NCBI GenBank assembly: GCA_019385495.1
Contig: GCA_019385495.1_4102.1
Reading direction: 5' to 3' (one strand)
Length of the DNA stretch: 64,000 nt
Source: a phage
Shown here: positions 15,667 through 35,975 of the stretch, one piece after another
Layout: each line of letters starts with the position of its first letter
Position numbering within the stretch: the first letter of the stretch is position 1
The notes under the pieces: generated by a model
Told to the model about the DNA's origin: nothing
The model's input: the letters and a program-made list of their open reading frames with translations, nothing else
The model's database searches: none
Translations under genes and position numbers: made by a program

Positions 15667-17472
15667 ATGCAATTAGATAAATTATATACTGACGTAACGA
15701 ATTTCCTCAATCAGAGCAATACTGATCTTACCAACGAAAATGCGAACAAAGATGCGAAATGCGTCAATACACACAGGGATTTACTTGCAGGTATCCTATC
15801 TAAGCATTATTCACAAGATGTTATTCCAAATGAGCTAATGCAGTGGCATAATGATGGTTATGGTCATATTCATGATTTAGACTACTATATCAGCCCATTA
15901 ACCAACTGTTGCTTAGTTAACTACCCAGATATGCTAAAAAATGGATTTACCATTGGTTGTGCCAAAATTGAAGAACCAAAGAGTTTTAGTGTAGCATGTA
16001 CAGTACTGACACAAATTGTTCAGGCTGTTGCTAGTTCCCAGTACGGTGGACAATCGTTGGCTCATATTGACGTTGGTCTTGAACCTTACGTCCAAAAGTC
16101 ATGGGATAAGCTGTTAGAAAAACAAAAGAAATATAATCTAAGTGATGAGTTCATTGAAGAAGAATTACGAAAAGAAGTATACGATGGATGTCAAACATTA
16201 CTTTACCAGACTAATTCAATGATTAGCACTAATGGACAAGCTGCATTCATTTCTCTTAGTTTAGGGCTTAATACTTCTAAATTTGGTAAATTAATCACTG
16301 AACAGTACTTAAAAGTTCATGAGAATGGTTTAGGTAAAGATAAGATTACTCCAGTGTTTCCTAAAGTAATTTTCTTTTTACAAGATGGTATAAACATGAA
16401 TACCAATGATAGTAATTATGACCTTAAACAGTTAGCTATGCGTTGTGCATCAAAACGAATCTACCCAGACTTTGTTTCAGTTCCATTAAATCACAAAGTG
16501 ACTGGAAGTAGTAGTACTGCTGTAACACCGATGGGCTGTCGTTCATTCTTAGGAAAATGGGAAGATTCAAATGGAAATGAACAATACAACGGTCGTTTCA
16601 ATTTAGGCGTAGTTTCTATCAATTTACCTCTAATTGCTCTTGAGTGTGCTTCTGATGGAGAGTTTTTTGATAAGATAGACGAGCACATGAATATTGCATA
16701 TCGTGCTCAGATGAACCGTGTGGAGCGTTTAAAAGGCACTAAAGCGAAGCAGAATCCAATTTTGTTCATGGAAGGTGCATTAGCACGTTTAGGTGCAGAA
16801 GAAACCATTGACAAGCTATTTTACAATGGTTATGCTAGTATTAGTATTGGTTATGTTGGTCTTGTTGAATGTTCAGAAATCCTCACTGGTTCTATCAGTA
16901 AGGAGTTTTGTATGTCAGTACTGAATTATATGAAAGTAAAATGTGATGAGTTCAAAAAAGAAAGTAATATTGCTTTTAGTCTATATGGAACTCCAGCAGA
17001 GTCGCTTTGTTATAAATTTGCACGTTGCATTGAAGCAAAATATCCTTCAGTACTAAAACGTGATTACATCACAAATTCCTTCCATCAACCAGTATGGGTA
17101 GAAAGTTCTCCATTTGATAAATGGAGTTATGAAGAAGGCTTTGCTTACCTAAGTAACGGTGGAAACATCAGTTATGTTGAATCTCCAAACTTAGCAAACA
17201 ACATTCAAGCACTTGAAACATTAGTTAACTATGCGTACACTAAGATACCATATTTTGGTATTAACCAACCAGTTGACCATTGTTATGAATGTGGCTTCCA
17301 GGGTGAGTTCAGTGTAGATAAACATGGTTTCCACTGTCCGGTATGTGATAATCGTAATGAGAAGACAATCTCAGTGATTCGTCGTGTTTCTGGTTACTTG
17401 GGTAATCCTTCTTCGCGTGGATTCAATAAAGGCAAACAACAAGAGTGTTGTGAGCGTATTCAGCACAAATAA
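15667..17472 (+). CDS. nrdD: anaerobic ribonucleoside-triphosphate reductase
   Basis: Glycyl-radical motif RVSGYLG, C-terminal Zn ribbon CYECG...CPVC, N-terminal region matches T4 NrdD pattern; start at M22 after AAGGAA; no intron. Confidence 0.85.
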   Translation: MQLDKLYTDVTNFLNQSNTDLTNENANKDAKCVNTHRDLLAGILSKHYSQDVIPNELMQWHNDGYGHIHDLDYYISPLTNCCLVNYPDMLKNGFTIGCAKIEEPKSFSVACTVLTQIVQAVASSQYGGQSLAHIDVGLEPYVQKSWDKLLEKQKKYNLSDEFIEEELRKEVYDGCQTLLYQTNSMISTNGQAAFISLSLGLNTSKFGKLITEQYLKVHENGLGKDKITPVFPKVIFFLQDGINMNTNDSNYDLKQLAMRCASKRIYPDFVSVPLNHKVTGSSSTAVTPMGCRSFLGKWEDSNGNEQYNGRFNLGVVSINLPLIALECASDGEFFDKIDEHMNIAYRAQMNRVERLKGTKAKQNPILFMEGALARLGAEETIDKLFYNGYASISIGYVGLVECSEILTGSISKEFCMSVLNYMKVKCDEFKKESNIAFSLYGTPAESLCYKFARCIEAKYPSVLKRDYITNSFHQPVWVESSPFDKWSYEEGFAYLSNGGNISYVESPNLANNIQALETLVNYAYTKIPYFGINQPVDHCYECGFQGEFSVDKHGFHCPVCDNRNEKTISVIRRVSGYLGNPSSRGFNKGKQQECCERIQHK

Positions 17473-17480
17473 GGTAAATT

Positions 17481-17813
17481 ATGGATTTAAAGCCAATTGT
17501 GGTTAACAAATACAAAGAACCGTATGATGTGTATATTGGACGTGGGTCTAAATGGGGAAACCCATTTACCCATATTAAAGATAAACAAACCAAAGCCGAG
17601 TTCATTGTTAGTACAAGAGAAGAATCAATTGAAAAATTCAGAGAATACATTATTGAACGTATTTCTTGTGGAGAAGTTAAGATTGATGAATTACTTGAAC
17701 TCGCAGGGAAACGCCTTGGTTGTTTCTGTAAACCAAAATCATGTCACGGCGATGTTCTTGTCGAAATAGTGAGTGCAATATTAGATGAATTACCAGACGA
17801 TAATCAAGGATGA
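17481..17813 (+). CDS. DUF4326-like protein
   Basis: YIGRGSKWGNPF motif recalled as the DUF4326 signature; lies between nrdD and nrdG. Confidence 0.5.
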   Translation: MDLKPIVVNKYKEPYDVYIGRGSKWGNPFTHIKDKQTKAEFIVSTREESIEKFREYIIERISCGEVKIDELLELAGKRLGCFCKPKSCHGDVLVEIVSAILDELPDDNQG

Positions 17814-26442: not shown

Positions 26443-28709
26443 ATAACCAATATATTGAACAAACAATAGTGAAACACTTGGCTGGGTCACAAGCCTACGG
26501 AACCAGTACACCTGAAAGTGATACTGATTATCGTGGTATTTTTCTTGCTAATAAAGAATTTATTCTTACACCCTTCTATAAGGTCAAAGAGGTAGCTGAT
26601 AAAAGCGAAGAAGATACTAAATTCTATGAGTTGAATCAGTATTTAAAATTATACACTGAAGCTAACCCTAATATTCTTGAATCACTTTGGGTTGAACCTG
26701 AACACATTGTTGAAAGTACTGAAATTTATGACTATCTTCGTTCATTTAACCAAAAACTTCTTAGTTCCAAGATTGCATTTTCATATACTGGTTATGCATA
26801 TAATCAGATTAAGCGTATGACAAATCATCACGGTTGGATGGATAAAGAGCGTATTGCTGAAAAACGATTAAATGAGATTTTAGAAGAACACCCTGTCGAT
26901 GAGGTTCTTGCGTGGATGTATGATTCATTCCCACAGTATCTTGTTGAACGTTTAGATACATCGAACTTACATCCATTTAATGCTAAAAAGATTGATTTTG
27001 AAAAATATATGCGTGATACATCATTGCAGTTAGTTTCGAAAAATCCATTAAAGCAATATCATTTCGTAAGATTAGTGCATAACTACACTACTGAAAAAAT
27101 TCTTGATCGTGATTTCAATTTATTGAATTTTAATAATGGTTATGAACTAATTCATTACGGAGAAAACATTTTTGCGATTGTTAAAAATCCGAATGAAAGT
27201 ACTATCAATGGTGATGGTTCATTGCGTTATTTTTCTAAAGAGCGTAGTACTGAAGAGTTGAAAACTAAACCAGAACTAATTGTCAAATTTAACGAAAAAG
27301 AATATCAGGAAAATAGTGAGAATAGGAAAAGTTATCATAAATGGAAAGAAAATCGTAATGCCAAACGTGCTATTTTAGAATCACAACACGGATACGACTG
27401 TTATAGTTTTGATACTGAATTCTTAACTAAAGATGGTTGGAAATTATTTGACGACATCACTGATAAAGATCTATTAGCGACTTTTGATAAAAATCACAAA
27501 ATAGAGTATCAAAAATACACAGAACGTTTTGATAATTTATACAATGGAAATCTTTACCATTTCACTGGTCATCACCAAGATACGTTAGTGACTGCAAATC
27601 ACAGAATGTATGTTAAGAATTATGCACGTAATCAGCAAAAAGATATGTCAGAATGGCAATTTGTTGAAGCAGCACAATTAAAAGAAACTTATAAAATTTT
27701 GAATACATTATCTCCAATAACAAAGGAATATAAAGATAAAAAAAGCCCAATTGACTATATGGATATCAAAGTTTATCTTCAACTGATGGGATGGTTTCTT
27801 TCAGATGGTAGTATAAGTTTTAGAGATGGAAAAGTAAAATCATTATACATTTCACAATCAAAAGCCAGTCCTGGTATGCGTTGTGCTTTATCAAAATACA
27901 AACAATCTGGACAAATGATATTTCAGGAATACATTAACGAAAGAAAAGATTACCAATCAAATGATGAATCAAGATTTGTATTTCCACGTGAAGTGGCTGA
28001 AGCATTATATAATGATTGTGGGCATGGATCATATAATAAAAGAATTCCAAATTGGGCATTTGATTTAACAAAACGAAAAATGGATTTTCTGCTAAAAGGT
28101 TTGTTGCAAGGTGATGGTACAAAACGTAATTTGGTCAATCATGATGACACATATGTATATTATACTGCTAATTCATTATTAGCTGATGATGTTCAAAAAC
28201 TAGCATTACTGTGCGGTTATGAAACATCGAAATGGGGACCATACACAAACGAAACTAATTTTGGTTATATTGAAATGTATCAAGTTCATATCAATATGAA
28301 ACCTAAATCAGAAAAAATAAACATGAAACAAAATCTTGAAAAAATTCCAGTAACTAACTACAGAACTGTTTGTTTTTCAGTTCCGAACGGTACACTGGTT
28401 ACTCGTAGAAATGGTAAAACTGCATTACATGGAAACTGTAAACATGCTATGCACACAATCCGACTTTTGAATAGTGCAGAAGAAGCATTACAAAGTGGAA
28501 TTATTCAAGTTAAACGACCAGATGCACAAATGTTGATGGATATTCGTAATGGTAAATGGAAGTATGAAGAAGTCTTAGAATATTTCGATGATAAAGTACA
28601 ATACATTCGTGATGTTCTATATAAGAAATCAGTACTTCCTAAAAAACCAAACATCAAGTTAGCATCAAAAATTATCATTGATATTAGAGAAATGCAATGG
28701 TATAAGTAA
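26439..28709 (+). CDS. Pol-beta-superfamily nucleotidyltransferase interrupted by an intein
   Basis: N-terminal GSQAYG-x8-SDTDYRG NTase motif; 346-residue insertion with intein and LAGLIDADG hallmarks. Confidence 0.7.
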   Translation: MNNQYIEQTIVKHLAGSQAYGTSTPESDTDYRGIFLANKEFILTPFYKVKEVADKSEEDTKFYELNQYLKLYTEANPNILESLWVEPEHIVESTEIYDYLRSFNQKLLSSKIAFSYTGYAYNQIKRMTNHHGWMDKERIAEKRLNEILEEHPVDEVLAWMYDSFPQYLVERLDTSNLHPFNAKKIDFEKYMRDTSLQLVSKNPLKQYHFVRLVHNYTTEKILDRDFNLLNFNNGYELIHYGENIFAIVKNPNESTINGDGSLRYFSKERSTEELKTKPELIVKFNEKEYQENSENRKSYHKWKENRNAKRAILESQHGYDCYSFDTEFLTKDGWKLFDDITDKDLLATFDKNHKIEYQKYTERFDNLYNGNLYHFTGHHQDTLVTANHRMYVKNYARNQQKDMSEWQFVEAAQLKETYKILNTLSPITKEYKDKKSPIDYMDIKVYLQLMGWFLSDGSISFRDGKVKSLYISQSKASPGMRCALSKYKQSGQMIFQEYINERKDYQSNDESRFVFPREVAEALYNDCGHGSYNKRIPNWAFDLTKRKMDFLLKGLLQGDGTKRNLVNHDDTYVYYTANSLLADDVQKLALLCGYETSKWGPYTNETNFGYIEMYQVHINMKPKSEKINMKQNLEKIPVTNYRTVCFSVPNGTLVTRRNGKTALHGNCKHAMHTIRLLNSAEEALQSGIIQVKRPDAQMLMDIRNGKWKYEEVLEYFDDKVQYIRDVLYKKSVLPKKPNIKLASKIIIDIREMQWYK
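27399..28436 (+). mobile_element. intein with LAGLIDADG homing endonuclease (residues 321-666)
   Basis: Starts CYSFDTEF (block A), TANH (block B), LMGWFLSDGSI and LLKGLLQGDGTK (LAGLIDADG), ends ...ALHGN followed by Cys. Confidence 0.7.
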
Positions 28710-28877
28710 CATATACAAGTGTAATGGTACTAAAAATGCCATTACACTCAATAAATACTCAATATAAATTAACACAAGGATTAAGTATGGCACAACAAAT
28801 TTTCACAGATATCCACACTACCGGAGTTATTAAATTTCAAAATAATTTTTCAGGTGCAACTGGTGTAGACATTAAAA

Positions 28878-29414
28878 ATGATGGTTTTAACATTATCAGT
28901 ACTCGGATCTATTGATGGTGAAGATAGTTCTCTTAGTGATTCTGTGATTGCATCATTCGGAACTAATAAAAACAGTTCTTTTATTATATCTGGATGGACT
29001 GGAATGACTGATTCTGAAAATAATGTTAAGATAAAAGCTAAAGCTACTAACGAGAATCATGAAACAGAATGGGTAACATTATATGATAGTGCAAGTAATA
29101 AGTTATATAATGTACTAAGTTCTAATAATATTTTAATTAATCCACTGTCGGGCAATGCTGTTTTTAATATTAATTTATCTGATAGAAATACTACTATTTC
29201 GATTGGTGCGGCTCCTACTGAAGTTTATTCAATTACCATCCTATTAACACAACAAACAGGTTCAAACCTAGTTAATTGGGGTTCTAATGTTAAATGGTCA
29301 TATAACAGACCAGTTGTTCTTTCTTATGAAATTGGTGAAAAAGATATTATTTCATTAGAAACATATGATAAAGGAGTTACATGGTACGGTGCATTAATTA
29401 GAGCAGGAGTATGA
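28878..29414 (+). CDS. hypothetical protein, possibly joined to a 42-aa upstream ORF
   Basis: 178 aa; upstream ORF (ATG about 28787, AAGGATT RBS) ends inside this ORF in another frame. Confidence 0.45.
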   Translation: MMVLTLSVLGSIDGEDSSLSDSVIASFGTNKNSSFIISGWTGMTDSENNVKIKAKATNENHETEWVTLYDSASNKLYNVLSSNNILINPLSGNAVFNINLSDRNTTISIGAAPTEVYSITILLTQQTGSNLVNWGSNVKWSYNRPVVLSYEIGEKDIISLETYDKGVTWYGALIRAGV

Positions 29415-29415
29415 T

Positions 29416-32205
29416 ATGTTAAACAATAATATTGATAATATTGTACAACTTCTTTATGGGCATCACAAATTTATTGAAAGAAATACTGGTGATACAATAG
29501 ACCCAACAGTACAACATTATGTGGTGAATAATCAGGGTGTTTTGGCGAACAACCGTCATTTTATTAACTATTCTGCAATGGAAGGTCAACCAAACGGTGA
29601 CGGGACAACAGAAGGTCAAAGTCTATTAATTTTAGGATACATTTATGCGTATCTGGCAACAAATGATCCAATGTTTTTAGATAAAGCCAAATGGTACTGG
29701 GATGCATATCATCAGTACTTTTATGCTGGGCGTGAATTACCAGACCCACCAACCCCACTGCAATGTAACTGGATAGTTAATGCCAAAGAACCGATTTTGG
29801 CTAACTGGCCTTTAGCTGATGATGGATGGCCTACACATGGTGGTTTCAAGGGTGTAGAATTTACATTTACAAATGGACAATGTAAAATACCACATGGTGC
29901 ACCTTATTATGGTCAGTTCTTGGATAAAGTAACATTTGCATTCAAAGGTGCTTTAGCATGGAACCAAATAAATGCGTCAGTAAAAGCTTTATTACCAGAT
30001 GGTAGTGTTGATTGGGATACACCAGGTGAACAATATGATGTTGACTGGATTATTGATTTCATGGGTAGAAAAATCGACTGGGATGGTAATATTTTAGCAG
30101 AAGGTTTTGACGAATCTGAAAAAGGAACTGTTCAATTAAAGAATACAACAATTAATGGTGTATATAAATTAAATTTTGCTAATCGTCAACCAGTAGAATA
30201 TGGTGGTGTGATAATTCAACGAAATGAAATGCAACACAACCGCCCTCTTCATGTTCCAATTGATTTGGAATTTGCTGATAACGCATCAGATGCAGAATTA
30301 TGGTTTAGTGATGCTTCTTATTTGTTATATAAAATAACAAAAGAAAGAAAACATTATTTGGGTTGGAAATGTTCACTACTAACGTGTTATGCTTATGGTG
30401 ATATTGACTCCAGAGATAAATTTTTCAGACAAAGTACAATTGTAACCACACCATTCACTGATGGTATTTCCTATGAATATTTTTATCCAAGTGATGCTAT
30501 TGCTAAGTTTGGTAGAAATTCTCTAGGATATATTACTATCAGGCAAGACCAAAGTGCACAAAGTACAATGGAACAACAAGCTATTTGGTTCAGGGTCAAT
30601 GCTGATTCTAAATTACTTGTAGACTATGGTGGTGTATGTGATGATGGTAAGCCGTTATCATTTAAACCAGTACTGGAATTGTCAAAAACAAAAAATGACC
30701 ATGATGTTGTTCGTTATCGTTGTGGCTTACCGGAAAGTAAAGACCAAAATATCACACATTCATTAACACCTTTAAGTGCATTTGTTAGAGAAAAGAAAGC
30801 AGATGGTTCCCCTTATATAATTGCTGATAGTAGAATTGTTGTTCCTTATGGTGCAGCTACGTCCGAAATGATATATAGTACTGATATATTAGTTACACGC
30901 CGCGATACCATTAATCAGTTAGTTTGTGGTGAAGATGATGGTGCTGTTATTGGATTTTGGCTATTAGCAACAAATAAGTCTGAAGTTAAATCTTTTACAT
31001 ATCGTTCATATGAAGATGATTACAATATAAGAATTGTAGATGATAATGGTTGGAGATGGTGGTGGATGATTCCTGCAACACACGGGGAATGGACTACAAT
31101 CACACTAAGTTCCGATACATTACGTTTATCTGGGTATCAGCCAAATCATCCAAGTTCTGACCCAAGACCAGATGCACCAGTTTATAGTGAACTAGAAGAT
31201 ATTACTATTTTACCTGATACAACCCCAGTAGATGGTGTTGCTGCAATAATTGATTGGTATTGTATTAATGACATTCCAGAATTATACACGGATGCTGACG
31301 GTGATGACTATACTATGACATTTTCAATAACAATTGCAGGTGAATCACCATATACTGCACAGTTAGGGGATTGTGTAATCAAGGATTATTTGTTAAACTC
31401 ATTGCATTACACACCAGGAACAATACCATTTTCTAACATCACTGACCCGTATGCGAACCAGTATTCAGGATGGCGTGGTTTACCGTATCCAGGTTATCAA
31501 TATCCTGTGATATATTGTTTTAAAGACCAGCCGGTAGATAACACACGCTTAGGAAACATGTTAAGCTTTATGAAAGATTCCCAAACATGGTTTACTCAAC
31601 AATTCGGTACTGTTGGTCCGTGTGCACAAGCATATGTTTGGAACCGCTGGGATAACTTAAAATATGGTGAACCAGATACATTTACTATGCTACATTGGGG
31701 TGATCAAGCATGGAGTGGGTATGAACCACGTGCGTTCTTTGGGGCTGCCAGAGCATGGCAAGAACTCGCAGAGAGAGGAATTGAACCACCAGCAGATCTT
31801 GTTGAATTTTGTGAGAATTGGATTCACTTTTTAATTCAATTTCAAAAAGATAATGATGGTCGTTCACCAACAATCTTCAATAAAGATGGCACAGTTGAAG
31901 GTCCAGATTGGGACTTTACAGGTCATATGTGTGGGTTGTGGTTAGCTGGGGCTTGTGCTGCTGGATTGGCTGGATGTAAAATAGAAGGTCTAACAACACT
32001 CGCTGATAACTTAGTTCTCGAACTTCAAAAGAATTATGTTATTGTAAATCCAGGTTCACCAATGAATGGTTCATGGAGTCCAGCAGTCAGAGAAGGTACT
32101 GATAATGGTATGTTTTTTGGTTTCTGGGCAGGTGAGATTATGCGTGGATTGGGATTATACTCAATGTACCGCTTAAACACACCAAATCGTTTCCGTGATT
32201 TATAA
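29416..32205 (+). CDS. large protein (929 aa), possible virion-associated glycan-degrading protein
   Basis: Follows fibre cluster; Trp/Tyr/Gly-rich C-terminal half; no motif firmly recognised. Confidence 0.5.
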   Translation: MLNNNIDNIVQLLYGHHKFIERNTGDTIDPTVQHYVVNNQGVLANNRHFINYSAMEGQPNGDGTTEGQSLLILGYIYAYLATNDPMFLDKAKWYWDAYHQYFYAGRELPDPPTPLQCNWIVNAKEPILANWPLADDGWPTHGGFKGVEFTFTNGQCKIPHGAPYYGQFLDKVTFAFKGALAWNQINASVKALLPDGSVDWDTPGEQYDVDWIIDFMGRKIDWDGNILAEGFDESEKGTVQLKNTTINGVYKLNFANRQPVEYGGVIIQRNEMQHNRPLHVPIDLEFADNASDAELWFSDASYLLYKITKERKHYLGWKCSLLTCYAYGDIDSRDKFFRQSTIVTTPFTDGISYEYFYPSDAIAKFGRNSLGYITIRQDQSAQSTMEQQAIWFRVNADSKLLVDYGGVCDDGKPLSFKPVLELSKTKNDHDVVRYRCGLPESKDQNITHSLTPLSAFVREKKADGSPYIIADSRIVVPYGAATSEMIYSTDILVTRRDTINQLVCGEDDGAVIGFWLLATNKSEVKSFTYRSYEDDYNIRIVDDNGWRWWWMIPATHGEWTTITLSSDTLRLSGYQPNHPSSDPRPDAPVYSELEDITILPDTTPVDGVAAIIDWYCINDIPELYTDADGDDYTMTFSITIAGESPYTAQLGDCVIKDYLLNSLHYTPGTIPFSNITDPYANQYSGWRGLPYPGYQYPVIYCFKDQPVDNTRLGNMLSFMKDSQTWFTQQFGTVGPCAQAYVWNRWDNLKYGEPDTFTMLHWGDQAWSGYEPRAFFGAARAWQELAERGIEPPADLVEFCENWIHFLIQFQKDNDGRSPTIFNKDGTVEGPDWDFTGHMCGLWLAGACAAGLAGCKIEGLTTLADNLVLELQKNYVIVNPGSPMNGSWSPAVREGTDNGMFFGFWAGEIMRGLGLYSMYRLNTPNRFRDL

Positions 32206-32206
32206 C

Positions 32207-32235
32207 TTGACATAGAAAAAGTAATTATGTATAAT
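32207..32235 (+). promoter_or_regulatory. sigma70-like promoter
   Basis: TTGACA-17 nt-TATAAT directly after the upstream stop, followed by a hairpin and T-run. Confidence 0.5.
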
Positions 32236-32279
32236 CAGAGAACTTCATATGGAGTTCTCTTTTTTTATAAGGTGATAAA

Positions 32280-32699
32280 ATGTTAAATGAACGTATTAAA
32301 AATGCACTACATGTATTGAACCAAGAAGTAAATTCTATTGATAAAAGTACTGACCGTTATAAAGTAATGCATGAAATCAAACAAGAATTGGAATCTATTA
32401 ATAAGGGAGAATGGTGGTATCTTCAGCCCGAATATCAAACTCGTGAATTAAACGATGTTGAAAAAGAAATTGTCAAATTCATCACTACTCGTTACTGTGA
32501 TACATCAGAGAATGAGGTATCAGCGAACTTCAATCTTACTAAATTGGAAGTCGAAGAAAAATTCAATTTTGATTGGCTTGATTGGATTGAAATGGTCATG
32601 GAACTAGAAGAAAAATTCAATGTTGAAGTTGATGAAAAGTTCGAGAATAATGAAACGAAGCTGTATGAACTAGTAGAACATATTCAAAAAATGTTGTAA
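32280..32699 (+). CDS. hypothetical acidic protein
   Basis: 139 aa; AAGGTGA RBS. Confidence 0.5.
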   Translation: MLNERIKNALHVLNQEVNSIDKSTDRYKVMHEIKQELESINKGEWWYLQPEYQTRELNDVEKEIVKFITTRYCDTSENEVSANFNLTKLEVEEKFNFDWLDWIEMVMELEEKFNVEVDEKFENNETKLYELVEHIQKML

Positions 32700-32752
32700 A
32701 ACTATACAATTGTATACTCTAAATAATATCATCAACTATAGGAGATATTATT

Positions 32753-33127
32753 ATGAGTATGTTAGAAATAATTGTTTCAAAAATTCTTATTCCATTTTGG
32801 AAACCAATTTCTTTTGTATTATTAATTGGCGGTTCAGCTTATGCTGGTTGGGAAGCTAATACTTATTACAGTGGATATCAACAAAGCATAGAGCAACAAA
32901 TAGCTAAAAAAGTTGATACCGCCTTGGATAAAATGCAACAAGAAAATGCAAAAAATTACCTTGAAACTAAAAAAATCATGGAAGATAATGCTAAAGTTAT
33001 TGAAACAAAAGTTCCTTTTATTGTAGAACGTGAAGTTTATAAGAATGTATGTTTAGATGAAGATGGTGTAAAAGTACTGAATGAACTAAAACAAAATTCT
33101 CAAGCTGCGAGGAATAAATTCAAATGA
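32753..33127 (+). CDS. putative i-spanin
   Basis: N-terminal TM helix then coiled-coil-like domain; directly precedes a lipoprotein gene. Confidence 0.55.
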   Translation: MSMLEIIVSKILIPFWKPISFVLLIGGSAYAGWEANTYYSGYQQSIEQQIAKKVDTALDKMQQENAKNYLETKKIMEDNAKVIETKVPFIVEREVYKNVCLDEDGVKVLNELKQNSQAARNKFK

Positions 33128-33432
33128 AAAAATTATTAGTTCCGTTTATTTCTTTTTTAATTATAAGTGGATGTGCAGAACAAGTAAAACTACAATCCCC
33201 TGCACCAATTAAACAAGAAATTCTGTTAGAAAGATGTGATGATGATACACCTCTACCACAAAAAATTATGATTGACAAAAATGGTTTTAAAGGTTATGAT
33301 GGTGCAGAAATTCTTAAAGTACTTACTCGTTGGGATGCAGTATACAACGAATGTGCTTTAAAACATGATGCATTAATTAAAACTATTCGTGATTTACAAG
33401 GTAAAGATATTAAAATCAATATCAAGGAATAA
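33124..33432 (+). CDS. putative o-spanin (lipoprotein)
   Basis: Signal peptide with lipobox LIISGC; ATGA overlap with the i-spanin gene. Confidence 0.6.
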   Translation: MKKLLVPFISFLIISGCAEQVKLQSPAPIKQEILLERCDDDTPLPQKIMIDKNGFKGYDGAEILKVLTRWDAVYNECALKHDALIKTIRDLQGKDIKINIKE

Positions 33433-33433
33433 A

Positions 33434-33904
33434 ATGAACAAATATCATGTTTACTATACGACCAAATTATCACTTCTTGACGAATTAAATCAACGAAGTA
33501 CTAAGATGAAACGCTACACTTTAAATGGTATTACTTTTCGATATTTCCCACAAAAAGTTCTTACATTTATTAAGAATCCAAAATGCGTGGCATGTGGGAT
33601 TGAAGCTACTGAAGTACGCATTGAACGTTCATTATGTTCTGATCCAGTATATGGTAAACCACATTTAAATGTATATGCTGTATGTGGTCTTTATGAAGTT
33701 TTAATGACAGTTGACCATAATCATCTGGCATCTAAGGGTGGACCTGATTTAGAGTCAAACTTTAATACTATGTGCTCCAGATGTAATCAACTACGTTCGA
33801 ATAAAACTGAAACAGTTGATGAGTTTCTTGAGAAAGTTAAAGGTCGTAATCTTCTCCAAGAACATATGAATAATTTCTTTAATGTACAAAAAAAAGAAAA
33901 ATAA
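33434..33904 (+). CDS. HNH endonuclease
   Basis: CVACG...DHNHLASKGGPDLESNFNTMCSRCN HNH/Zn motif; start at M16 of ORF 33389. Confidence 0.65.
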   Translation: MNKYHVYYTTKLSLLDELNQRSTKMKRYTLNGITFRYFPQKVLTFIKNPKCVACGIEATEVRIERSLCSDPVYGKPHLNVYAVCGLYEVLMTVDHNHLASKGGPDLESNFNTMCSRCNQLRSNKTETVDEFLEKVKGRNLLQEHMNNFFNVQKKEK

Positions 33905-34058
33905 CATTGACAAGTCGAAACTACTAGAAGAACGTAGGTTACGTCAAGAATTATGGGAAACTGATCATCTATGGCATGTTCGAGAGTTTGGTCGTCATAT
34001 GAAAGCTTTGAAAAAAGAACAGAAGAAATTGAATAAACATGATTGATATGATATTATA

Positions 34059-34088
34059 GGGACTTGAGTATTCAAGTCCTTTTTTTTT
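34059..34088 (+). terminator. intrinsic terminator
   Basis: GGGACTTGA-GTAT-TCAAGTCC then nine T. Confidence 0.5.
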
Positions 34089-34099
34089 GGAGAAAATAA

Positions 34100-34456
34100 A
34101 TGAAATCTAAAATCTTTTTACCACAATTAATGTGGCATCTAGCAGAGTTAGATGAAAATGATGAATATACTGACTATGGTGCATGGGATGACAGTACTGA
34201 AACTTTTAAACCAGATGTAAAATATAAAATCATCTGCAATGAAAGCAAAGGACACAAAAGGTGGACTGAAGAATTTGATCTCGTATTTCTTGACATGAGC
34301 ACAAATAAGTTTTATCATTGTAATTATGAACGAGGTTTAACAGAAGATAGACCAGTACAACCATTCAGTACTGAAACTGATGGTGTTAAGTGCAATGAAG
34401 TTTCTGTTACCAGAGAAGAAATTATCACTTATCGAACTTTGTGGAAATATTTGTAA
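34100..34456 (+). CDS. hypothetical protein
   Basis: 118 aa; GGAGAAAA RBS. Confidence 0.5.
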   Translation: MKSKIFLPQLMWHLAELDENDEYTDYGAWDDSTETFKPDVKYKIICNESKGHKRWTEEFDLVFLDMSTNKFYHCNYERGLTEDRPVQPFSTETDGVKCNEVSVTREEIITYRTLWKYL

Positions 34457-34457
34457 A

Positions 34458-34856
34458 ATGCTTAAAGAATTAGATTTTTCAAACTTAGAAATTATCAGTG
34501 CTGTAAAAAACATTTCCGATATGGGAGATGAGAAAGCAGTTCTTGTTACTATTACTTTTGTAAAAGAAAAAGATAGCTATAGCTATTTAACTGGCATTGA
34601 AGAACTAATTCATAAAACCAATCTTGAGAATGATGGTAAACTCATCAAGCTTCAGGCTTCCTATACGCAAAAAACGTCAAATTTTATAGACCTAAATAAT
34701 GTAGTCAAGGTGGTATACAATCATCCTGAACACACATATAGGAATACGACAAGAAATGAAAATGTTGCTAACGATTCGAATATTATCGAAGATGTTGAAT
34801 TCATAAACACAATTTTTGATCGTTGTTCTAAGGATTTAAAAAAAGTATACATGTAA
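34458..34856 (+). CDS. hypothetical protein
   Basis: Start at M27 of ORF 34380, one nt after the upstream stop. Confidence 0.45.
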   Translation: MLKELDFSNLEIISAVKNISDMGDEKAVLVTITFVKEKDSYSYLTGIEELIHKTNLENDGKLIKLQASYTQKTSNFIDLNNVVKVVYNHPEHTYRNTTRNENVANDSNIIEDVEFINTIFDRCSKDLKKVYM

Positions 34857-35162
34857 TGGGACATTATATGTTCCAATGATATAATGTATATAGAAAATGA
34901 CAACGGACATTGAAAAATGGACACTGAGAACCTACTTCTCTTGAAAATGTAAAGGATAGATGAGCTTTACCGTTGTAGCGAACAGCAGAAGAAACCTGTT
35001 AGAGTACTGGCATTCAAACAAACACGATGTAAGACCACGAATCACGGCGACACGGCTGTATAAAGAACTCCGATAAGCATACAGAGAGTTCCTAGATAGA
35101 TGTATAAGGTTCGCACCTTACCAGATTTGCTAAGGGAGTTTAAGAATAGCGGACGCAATTTT

Positions 35163-35191
35163 ACAAGAAAGTTGCGTCCAAAATTTGAGAA
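35163..35191 (+). repeat. direct repeat copy 1 (ACAAGAAAG-NNN-CGTCCAAAATTTGAGAA)
   Basis: 29-nt unit; conserved segment sits in a hairpin loop. Confidence 0.45.
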
Positions 35192-35315
35192 CAGGTACTT
35201 ACTTTGATCGAATAGAGTTAGTACTGAGTGCTGTTGATGAAAAGACCAGCGACCGTTGCATATGACTGCGATAGAGAGAAACCGAGCAACCCGCTTTCGC
35301 TCTCTAAATTTTGGT

Positions 35316-35344
35316 ACAAGAAAGATCCGTCCAAAATTTGAGAA
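35316..35344 (+). repeat. direct repeat copy 2
   Basis: Second copy about 150 nt downstream, also within a hairpin. Confidence 0.45.
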
Positions 35345-35382
35345 ATTCGCAATTCGATAATATCCGATGCCATCATCGTCAA

Positions 35383-35406
35383 GAGAGACTTAATTGTCTC
35401 TTTTTT
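35383..35406 (+). terminator. intrinsic terminator
   Basis: GAGAGAC-TTAATT-GTCTCTC then six T. Confidence 0.5.
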
Positions 35407-35546
35407 ATTACCTTCATTCCCCTGCGGGGGGATGTAATAGTCCTCAACAAATCCCGTCAAGTTTTTAAAGTACATTATCATTTTCAGAAGGAACAAGTTT
35501 ACGAAGTAAACGCAGTGACTTCTTGAGTTACGAGAGAACGAAGTGA

Positions 35547-35975
35547 ATGAGTAACACAACGAAAATATCCGATAAATCCGAATTAACACAAATGTTATTC
35601 AAAGAATATTTTGAGTTTCAGATAAAAGACGAACATCAATTACCACAGCAATATTTGAAAAGAATTAAAGATCCGTCAGTAATTACTAAAGAAACTAATT
35701 TTTATAATAGTATTTTGGATTTCGTTAAATCAGTTCATACAACAAGACCTATTGTAGTTTTGTTTTTTGATAAATCTATTCCTTTAGTAGTTCCTGAAAA
35801 TGTATTTTTTATTTCAGAAACTGATTTAAATAATCAAAGTACTGTAAGTAGATTAAGAAATTGCTTACTTGTAGTATGTGATTCTTCTTTGTATAATAAC
35901 AGAATACTATGGGATAGAAGTAAACGCAATGCAGTTTCTGAAATGAATCCTGAAATTACCTTTATTATTAACTAA
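35547..35975 (+). CDS. hypothetical protein
   Basis: 142 aa ORF. Confidence 0.5.
   Translation: MSNTTKISDKSELTQMLFKEYFEFQIKDEHQLPQQYLKRIKDPSVITKETNFYNSILDFVKSVHTTRPIVVLFFDKSIPLVVPENVFFISETDLNNQSTVSRLRNCLLVVCDSSLYNNRILWDRSKRNAVSEMNPEITFIIN

Follow-up and report, generated by a model that had tools for sequence, protein, structure and literature searches.

A large pseudoknotted non-coding RNA repeated around the genomes of Rak2-like jumbo phages and also found in enterobacterial islands

What may be encoded by a stretch of phage DNA that holds no convincing gene and is richer in G+C than its surroundings? This question is raised by positions 34857-35546 of a phage contig (GCA_019385495.1_4102.1), of which 64,000 nucleotides, hereafter the window, were analyzed. 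The stretch is flanked by plus-strand open reading frames (ORFs) at 34380-34856 and 35547-35975 and contains only short ORFs that are mutually inconsistent among relatives. Its G+C content amounts to 0.41-0.425 over 34900-35399 and to 0.29-0.33 in the flanks, a difference already noticed in an earlier reading of the letters (the original prediction), which proposed one or more small RNAs or a protein-binding or origin-like element. We show here that the region forms a transcription unit of its own, devoted to a large non-coding RNA with an extensive fold, which measures about 515 nt from its promoter to an internal terminator and whose conserved sequence extends over about 570 nt. The original prediction indicated the right place and a partly right nature, and underestimated the size, the unity and the distribution of this RNA.

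The fold comprises at least 18 helices supported by covariation among 56 non-redundant homologues, including three pseudoknots (Table 1). When tested on the alignment of these 56 sequences (A3), the model yields standard pairs in 92.0% of the cells, compared to 75.0% in shuffles (n = 500) and 37-45% when the 3' partners are slid, whereas 730 cells are doubly changed, against 216 in shuffles (none of the 500 reaching 730) and 93-125 with slid partners. Similarly, the covariation score reaches 0.456 (0.161 in shuffles, 0.07-0.10 with slid partners), and both-sided changes are found at 59 of the 80 pairs. Such changes affect all seven pairs of the first helix of pseudoknot 1 (PK1), while P4 is 100% paired with the variants UA, AU, and CG, and helices 11, 13, 14, and 15 of the 3' core are paired at 98-100% with 3-7 doubly changed pairs each. 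Both strands of PK3 are even replaced in one subgroup, which carries CUGAAUU/AAUUCAG for AUCGAAU/AUUCGAU. In each pseudoknot a hairpin loop pairs with a distant strand, and the fold also includes GNRA-capped arms and near-invariant junctions. The element is kept in relatives and presents compensatory base changes, in agreement with the earlier suggestion of a structured, functional and non-coding element, probably an RNA.

Predominant G-U pairs at several positions (e.g., columns 508/529 and 668/682) would become A-C on the other strand, which identifies the plus strand as the folded one. Since long-range helices and the three pseudoknots join the whole region, about 34900-35461 forms a single large RNA, and the idea of one or more small RNAs is not supported. 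In an alignment of 12-14 intergenic regions, near-invariant blocks alternate with variable hairpins; these blocks are GAAAAUGUAGA..AGAUGAG, GCAnAAGAAACCCGUUAG, CACGGCAAUGCGGC, AUAAAG, GAUAGACAUAUAAGG, UAAGGGAG, CGACCGUUG, GAUAGAGAGAAAC..CAACCCGC, AGAAAUUC, CGUCA, and CCCCUGCGGGGGGAUG...CGUCA. The near-invariant CGACCGUUG and GAAAC...CAACCCGC lie in the 3' core. The model was built from an explicit covariation scan, alignment inspection and manual modelling, which replaced RNAalifold runs on raw MAFFT alignments that returned unstable long-range pairs.

Transcription is predicted to start near 34892, downstream of a promoter whose TGnTATAAT-like element is found upstream of 54 of the 56 homologues. 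In the copies of phages GAP32 and CBB, the -35 element reads TGAAACG, a promoter class linked to DNA-synthesis genes (PMC5259590). Two promoter-like sites on the minus strand (34903-34876 and 34890-34863) overlap the plus-strand promoter, in a number not above that of shuffles, and minus-strand promoters at TTGACG were considered and dropped.

Table 1. Promoter, helices, pseudoknots and 3' elements of the RNA in the window, from 5' to 3'.
Feature	Position	Strand	Details
Promoter	34858..34885	+	GGGACA, 16-nt spacer, TG-extended TATAAT; 10/12 with TG in consensus scan
Conserved RNA core, from P1 5' strand to second CGUCAAG	34900..35461	+	nhmmer envelope 34928-35461, E = 2.8e-145; 18 helices
Pseudoknot 1 (PK1)	34900..34979	+	34900-34906 pairs with 34970-34976, the loop of hairpin P4 (34964-34966 / 34977-34979)
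P2, inside PK1	34908-34919	+	GAAA loop
P3, inside PK1	34932-34959	+	Conserved loop GAAAAUGUA
P5	34982-86 / 35055-59 (within 34982..35091)	+	100% paired
P6	34996-99 / 35044-47 (within 34982..35091)	+	100% paired; variable insert
Invariant junction	within 34982..35091	+	CACGGCAAUGCGGC...AUAAAG
Hairpin P7	35065-70 / 35086-91	+	6/6 pairs doubly changed, up to 4 pair types
Peripheral arm, site 1	35138..35192	+	Closing helix P9 (35138-41 / 35189-92); carries 29-nt unit 1; inner stem 35151-35162 / 35168-35179
3' core with pseudoknot 3 (PK3)	35207..35358	+	Hairpin loop 35207-13 pairs with 35352-58
P11	35230-33 / 35247-50	+	
Pseudoknot 2 (PK2)	35255-59 with 35286-90	+	35286-90 is the loop of P12 (35274-78 / 35294-98)
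P13	35267-71 / 35347-51	+	
Peripheral arm, site 2	35301..35343	+	P14 (35301-04 / 35340-43); carries 29-nt unit 2
Small hairpin	35365..35383	+	35365-69 / 35374-78, ending in CGUCAAG motif 1 (35377-35383)
Internal terminator-like hairpin	35381..35406	+	AAGAGAGAC / GUCUCUUUU and U run; z = -5.1 for 35360-35410
3' domain	35415..35461	+	C4/G6 hairpin 35418-22 / 35426-30; GAUG...CGUC 35431-34 / 35455-58; CGUCAAG motif 2 35455-35461
Downstream hairpin (tentative)	35527..35555	+	GUUAC / GUAAC, loop GAACGAAGUGA (35536-35546); overlaps ATG of ORF 35547

Could the stretch nevertheless hide a small protein gene that annotation had overlooked? Minus-strand stop-free stretches of up to 115 codons exist in the window, and automated annotations place 1-4 "hypothetical proteins" across the stretch in several database records, but the longest open stretch varies in strand, frame and length between relatives, indels against close relatives are for the most part no multiple of 3, with 1, 2, and 4 nt between the window and relatives of 81-88% identity, and substitutions follow base-pair covariation instead of a codon-like pattern. 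A protein gene can practically be set aside, as the earlier reading had assumed. The one to four "hypothetical protein" coding sequences drawn over the RNA region in such GenBank records (e.g., PQ390715.1, OR699181.1, PV611058.1) are probably annotation artefacts. A small ORF after GGGGGGAUG was also considered and dropped, the window reading AUG-UAA at this place.

The original prediction was built around a 29-nt unit, ACAAGAAAG-NNN-CGTCCAAAATTTGAGAA, seen twice about 150 nt apart. There are indeed exactly two copies (35163-35191 and 35316-35344), 153 nt apart, and none of 100 shuffles gave even one match; comparison of the element against the window by blastn returned only this internal repeat, as 30 nt, the other copies of the element lying outside the window. 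The two hairpins were thought to present the same loop, which holds for the second copy, where the unit sits mostly in the loop of a AAAUUUUGG/CCAAAAUUU stem (-12.4 kcal/mol, z = -3.2), but not for the first one, where the 3' half AAAGUUGCGUCC is engaged in a far more stable 12-bp stem with the upstream GGACGCAAUUUU (-20.7 kcal/mol, z = -5.5), leaving only ACAAG in the loop. This 12-bp stem appears, from a reading of the alignment, to undergo compensatory changes in other copies. The family consensus of the unit is ACAAnAnAGnUnCGUCC(A)AAAUUUGA. Among the 56 homologues, the module is found at site 1 (P9) in 31 and at site 2 (P14) in 20, with 11 carrying both, as in the window, and 16 carrying neither; in GAP32-type copies, the arm at site 1 is a plain GCCA-GAAA-UGGC hairpin.

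The 29-nt unit is therefore an optional peripheral module that can be inserted in either or both of two helices, and does not form the core. Variation of this kind in peripheral elements is known from large ribozymes and ribonucleoprotein RNAs, whereas iterons do not behave so. That the units would mark independent small RNAs, each presenting the same sequence, or a DNA element with iteron repeats is very improbable: the exact repeat is highly non-random and each copy lies within a stable local hairpin, but covarying long-range helices unite the region, the unit is absent from 16 of the 56 homologues and may occupy either of two sites, and both units of the window are enclosed in RNA arms closed by covarying helices. 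Moreover, iteron arrays are made of three or more regularly spaced direct repeats, of which there are only two here, and the G-U wobble pairs point to selection at the RNA level on one strand. Of the protein-binding or origin-like element once proposed, an origin-like role is plausible, an array of binding repeats much less so.

The 3' end of the RNA is more complex than a simple terminator. A strong intrinsic terminator had been announced at this place, and a hairpin followed by U6 is present, but its stem contains only 3 G-C pairs, it escaped a consensus scan for terminators, and its place is within the conserved element and not at the end. An equivalent hairpin followed by at least five Ts is found in 34 of the 56 copies, the others having a variable hairpin or nothing. 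Conservation runs past it in all 56 copies, with the C4/G6 hairpin and a second CGUCA(A/G) motif. Both CGUCA motifs form the 3' strand of a small GAUG...CGUC hairpin, and they vary together in independent lineages, being CGACA twice in a Serratia island, UGUCA twice in copy L127, and GUGUCA twice in copies L090 and L117; the base that follows (A or G) also agrees between both motifs in about 50 of the 56 copies. Such paired changes could reflect a shared pairing partner or a requirement that two isoforms end identically at the 3' side, and no conserved intramolecular complement of the CGUCA motifs was found.

Beyond the second motif, only a short A+T-rich spacer is present. A hairpin with a GAACG(A/U)AGUGA-like loop occurs 35-105 nt past this motif in about 30 of the 56 phage and island copies. 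A GAACG(A/U)AGUGA(G) loop hairpin is located at 35536-35555 of the window and also downstream of the RNA in L144, L153, L171, and L159, and GAP32- and Munch-type copies add AAUUCUU(U/A)GACA(U/A)UCGAAGAAUGG beside it. In the window the fold of this downstream hairpin was no better than that of shuffles, and it is a weak part of the model. GAP32-type copies harbor TATAAAT directly after the second CGUCAG, corresponding to the late-promoter motif ATAAATA (PMC5259590). No sigma-70-like plus-strand promoter was found at 35407-35546 of the window, and the gene at 35547 may thus need read-through from the RNA unit or a phage-specific promoter.

This arrangement would suit a cis-acting leader controlling transcription, in which the fold of the nascent RNA decides on read-through of the internal terminator, in the manner of a giant attenuator or riboswitch or of an antiterminator similar to put of phage HK022. 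The put RNA has about 70 nt and two stem-loops; like it, the present element would be a folded nascent RNA acting in cis in an enterobacterial phage, with the host RNA polymerase only, upstream of a terminator. The position of the terminator-like hairpin inside a conserved unit that continues beyond it, the lack of a sigma-70-like promoter before the next gene, and the ability of GAUG to pair alternatively with either CGUC motif are all in favor of a leader, and reliance on the host RNA polymerase alone would suit the copies found in bacterial islands. We nonetheless consider a leader improbable. Riboswitches and attenuators lie upstream of the genes that they regulate and in the same orientation, whereas the whole element is kept in baseplate-type copies (slurp01 at 266.8 kb, Munch, Hallingskeid, L040) even though minus-strand genes converge on them, and island copies often run into a convergent cI-like gene. 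In addition, 22 of the 56 copies lack the U run, no known aptamer or leader comes near the length of about 450 nt that would be required, and the RNA, about seven times larger than put, is kept even without downstream co-oriented genes.

The distribution of the RNA provides another type of evidence. The closest relatives of the region are Escherichia phage vB_Eco_slurp01 (99.7% identity) and PBECO4 and 121Q (98-99%), all of the genus Asteriusvirus, and the window comes from such a PBECO4/121Q/slurp01-like jumbo phage. The element is recognizable at 66-71% DNA identity in 72 phage records, all of Rak2-like jumbo phages, which infect Escherichia, Klebsiella, Salmonella, Erwinia, Yersinia, Cronobacter, Pectobacterium, Xanthomonas, and Serratia; so high an identity is unusual when non-coding DNA is compared across genera this far apart. 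Since the best matches occurred in differing genomic contexts across phages, the existence of paralogues was suggested. A pattern scan of IMG/VR followed by nhmmer gave 62 matches, 55 of them full-length, from which 47 phage copies were retained after removal of near-duplicates.

In slurp01, all copies are located on the plus strand: one at about 29.5 kb follows an rpoD-like sigma gene, one at 135.4 kb precedes dam, one at 188 kb corresponds to that of the window, and one at 266.8 kb (baseplate-type) lies between minus-strand genes near the baseplate hub, keeping the common orientation despite its opposite-strand neighbors. A covariance model of the 3' core and nhmmer both indicated exactly four copies for slurp01 and the window, the copy of the window being one of four paralogues in its genome. 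A 2.2 kb segment of slurp01 without annotated gene among very short ORFs (76,123-78,315) yielded no copy with covariance model R1, which in effect covers only P11, P12, and the conserved strand because alignment A4 was misaligned at the 3' end for copies lacking module 2.

Five copies each are found in GAP32 (at about 35.2, 98.8, 177.5, 261.5, and 340.7 kb), Yen9-04 and CBB, both with equivalent positions, and two metagenomic genomes. They are separated by 53-86 kb in GAP32, CBB, and the metagenomic genomes (56-85 kb in the latter two) and by 44-86 kb in Yen9-04, and within each of 9 genomes the copies are co-oriented. For five random points on a circle, the probability that every gap reaches at least 0.148 of the circumference, as with the GAP32 spacing, is (1 - 5 x 0.148)^4, i.e., about 0.005. 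Copies group by paralogue type across genera and not by genome, hence the duplications predate the genera and every type has been retained.

The RNA is also found outside phages. Two of 5,426 complete Escherichia coli genomes harbor an intact copy (436 bits with nhmmer; 87% of the query aligned at 76% identity) in an island of about 10 kb adjoining ffs (strain LR-29-1, NZ_AP027515.1, about 3,473,200-3,483,600), which encodes a tyrosine integrase disrupted by IS3, a resolvase, and a DuOB/DUF488/DUF4326 module that is a candidate for defence. The DuOB, DUF488, and mSLOG-DUF4326 trio matches the candidate system PDC-M45 of PADLOC, and the same island encodes a 318-aa protein with weak similarity to PDC-M01B and a DUF2188 protein. 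Nine further intact copies were retrieved by a pattern scan of GTDB species genomes, eight of them in Enterobacterales (Citrobacter, Silvania, two Serratia, Enterobacter, Buttiauxella, and two other Enterobacteriaceae) and the ninth on a 2.8 kb contig binned as Clostridium, probably by misbinning. A recurrent gene order is observed in the islands, with an integrase (tyrosine or large serine), the RNA, an opposite-strand cI-like repressor, then Ner-like, membrane and LprI-like proteins, and finally a resolvase. Comparison of the island proteins with the phage genome revealed no shared protein except the DUF4326 domain; a DUF4326-like domain encoded at 17469-17786 (+) of the window, not near the RNA, resembles the mSLOG-DUF4326 protein encoded in the E. 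coli island, with 41% identity (tblastn, E = 1e-15). Island copies cluster with particular phage paralogue types, suggesting repeated exchange between phages and islands. The element was absent from the 72,556 plasmids of PLSDB, searched by blastn in distant mode.

Is this RNA already known under another name? The comparison with Rfam covariance models recommended in the original prediction matched no family. With Rfam 15 at the gathering level, neither the 64 kb window nor 16 homologous loci gave a match, and at permissive thresholds (E up to 5-10) only chance snoRNA- or sRNA-like matches were obtained, none of them over the core; the Rfam comparisons covered the window and 20 loci in all. 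There was no Rfam match to RNase P, group I/II introns, tmRNA, 6S, GOLLD, ROOL, OLE, HEARO, or riboswitches in particular, and ARAGORN detected neither tRNA nor tmRNA over the window, in line with the earlier failure to build a tRNA cloverleaf. A boxA/nut-like sequence and a resemblance to CR-IV of RNase P were considered from the sequence and dropped. No published description of the RNA was found in the literature, and it appears to be a new family, undescribed as far as we found.

Four non-coding RNAs (ncRNAs) defined by RNA-seq were reported in the related phage PA5oct (PMC7318152). Of these, ncRNAs 001, 002, and 004 were tried as homologues without homology being established, the best nhmmer match having E = 0.12 (3' hairpin of ncRNA004) and covariance model R1 giving nothing. 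The ncRNA004 gene (MK797984.1, 246116-246734) lies on the plus strand between minus-strand structural genes, a position like that of the baseplate-type copy, and terminates in a hairpin followed by a U-rich tract and UUCCUUCCCAAACGGGGAGGAAA, an end similar to the 3' domain of the family but without a significant nhmmer or covariance match.

The architecture of the RNA evokes the large "ornate" RNAs. ROOL and GOLLD, too, are large RNAs associated with phages or prophages, without an assigned function (PMC12286853). Like ROOL, GOLLD, and OLE, the present RNA exceeds 500 nt, is phage-associated, contains many conserved helices and pseudoknots and was discovered by comparison, and it exhibits the descriptive traits of ornate RNAs (more than 400 nt, covarying helices and pseudoknots, conserved junctions, phage association), a class that is descriptive and does not imply homology. 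It differs from them by the absence of any Rfam match even at E up to 10, by its occurrence in jumbo phages of Enterobacterales and not in phages of Firmicutes or of the rumen, by its 4-5 syntenic and evenly spaced paralogues per genome, and by the lack of association with tRNA genes.

The RNA might accordingly act in trans, being freed at the internal terminator or processed at CGUCA and serving as a scaffold or ribonucleoprotein, a ROOL/GOLLD-like multimer, or a ribozyme; it would be directed at some host component that Enterobacterales have in common, and the multiple copies would provide dosage or differing expression timing. Near-invariant junctions and loops, three pseudoknots, GNRA-capped arms and exchangeable modules are the signature of RNAs acting through their tertiary structure, each copy has its own promoter, with a hairpin and U run in 34 of 56, and the presence in phages and in islands that share no protein would fit a host target. 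A trans-acting RNA is the best account of the structure but fails on the genomic pattern; left without explanation are the even spacing and shared orientation of 4-5 diverged syntenic paralogues and their long retention, the conservation downstream of the terminator, and the repeated acquisition of particular paralogue types by islands. Overall, such a role is a serious contender that we nevertheless regard as somewhat unlikely.

We tentatively favor a cis-acting origin or primer element, with a probability of roughly 40%. Its spacing, its co-orientation, the retention of all paralogues and the conservation past the terminator speak for it, as do the DNA-synthesis-type promoter of the GAP32 and CBB copies and the fact that, DUF4326 domain aside, the RNA is the sole element common to islands and phages. 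The host RNA polymerase would start at a sigma-70-type or middle-type promoter; the folded transcript and its 3' domain, comprising the terminator-like hairpin, the C4/G6 hairpin and the duplicated CGUCA, would set a 3' end or an RNA-DNA hybrid; and this 3' end or hybrid would prime rightward DNA synthesis. As a result, 4-5 co-oriented initiation sites, about 55-85 kb apart, would be distributed around a genome of 350 kb, and infection by a jumbo phage would lead to amplification of the islands carrying a copy, or else to competition between island and phage.

Origins of a related type are known in phage T4, which uses at least five early origins, oriF and oriG being promoters whose transcripts enter an R-loop and thereby prime one-directional synthesis (PMC3016281). 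These two origins share no sequence motif and need about 100 bp, with only a promoter and an A+T-rich unwinding element (PMC3016281). As in T4, several sites are found per genome of a T4-related myovirus, each around a promoter with a sigma-70-type -10, and a phage RNase H is available, rnhA being annotated in slurp01. The promoter and the dispersion of sites thus correspond to the T4 type, but the transcribed region is G+C-enriched and structured where an A+T-rich element would be expected. Moreover, T4 origins are devoid of conserved RNA structure, whereas here 4-5 homologous, pseudoknotted and G+C-enriched elements of about 0.55 kb are found, which would act as origins.

Another comparable system is RNA II of ColE1/pMB1 plasmids, a non-coding RNA of about 550 nt transcribed from a sigma-70 promoter, whose fold governs a persistent hybrid near its 3' end, including an interaction between a G-run and a C-run, with structured single-strand initiation hairpins downstream and without the need for an element-encoded protein. 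The length of the putative pre-primer is similar, a sigma-70 promoter being followed by about 0.5 kb, with the U run reached after about 515 nt and motif 2 after about 570 nt. The two RNAs have no relation in sequence or in Rfam, however, no clear counterpart of the antisense RNA I was identified here, the two minus-strand promoter-like sites over the plus-strand promoter being no more numerous than in shuffles, and the phage RNA is conserved far more deeply and is absent from the plasmids examined; this absence argues against a ColE1-like origin relying on host factors alone.

Several other observations likewise weigh against an origin or primer. Across slurp01, GC skew tracks the orientation of the genes, with no sign of an origin where the copies lie. 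The spacing amounts in effect to one observation because the genomes are syntenic, and it is less even in Asteriusvirus, with gaps of 106, 53, 79, and 111 kb. A G+C-enriched RNA with deeply conserved junctions and pseudoknots is more typical of ribozymes, ribonucleoproteins and ornate RNAs, and priming does not explain the need for such a conserved tertiary fold. Finally, a terminator-like hairpin upstream of the 3' domain would free the transcript and not keep a hybrid.

A bolder combination, which we hold to be clearly unlikely, is that these RNAs constitute a previously undescribed class of large pseudoknotted "origin RNAs". Five homologous, even and co-oriented RNA genes would then set the initiation of replication in Rak2-like phages, the core being a self-processing (ribozyme-like) or protein-recruiting module that makes a ...CGUCA 3' end for priming at either of two identical sites, and islands would have repeatedly pirated the element for their amplification or as decoys.

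Even if only a new RNA class were at stake, the family would add a large pseudoknotted RNA to a short list that includes OLE, GOLLD, ROOL, and raiA. Its setting is unusual, with well-studied hosts (E. coli, Salmonella, Klebsiella) and culturable phages (PBECO4, 121Q, GAP32, CBB), and such tractable phages make genetics, RNA-seq and cryo-EM feasible at once. The genomic behavior, which associates 4-5 ancient, co-oriented and regularly spaced paralogues with capture by islands, is without precedent for a structured RNA. Should the element be a cis-acting origin, it would reveal how jumbo phage genomes of 350 kb begin their replication, provide the first homologous structured RNAs defining multiple origins, and uncover a new type of parasitism or defence between phages and islands that operates via a shared RNA. 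On the practical side, several database records carry probably spurious "hypothetical proteins" over the element.

Upstream of the RNA, anchor mapping suggests that the window contains about 3.4 kb of extra DNA compared to slurp01, somewhere within about 28,470-34,860. An HNH-endonuclease-like ORF is located at 33389-33904 of the window, and its counterpart in A4_508 is annotated as HNH.

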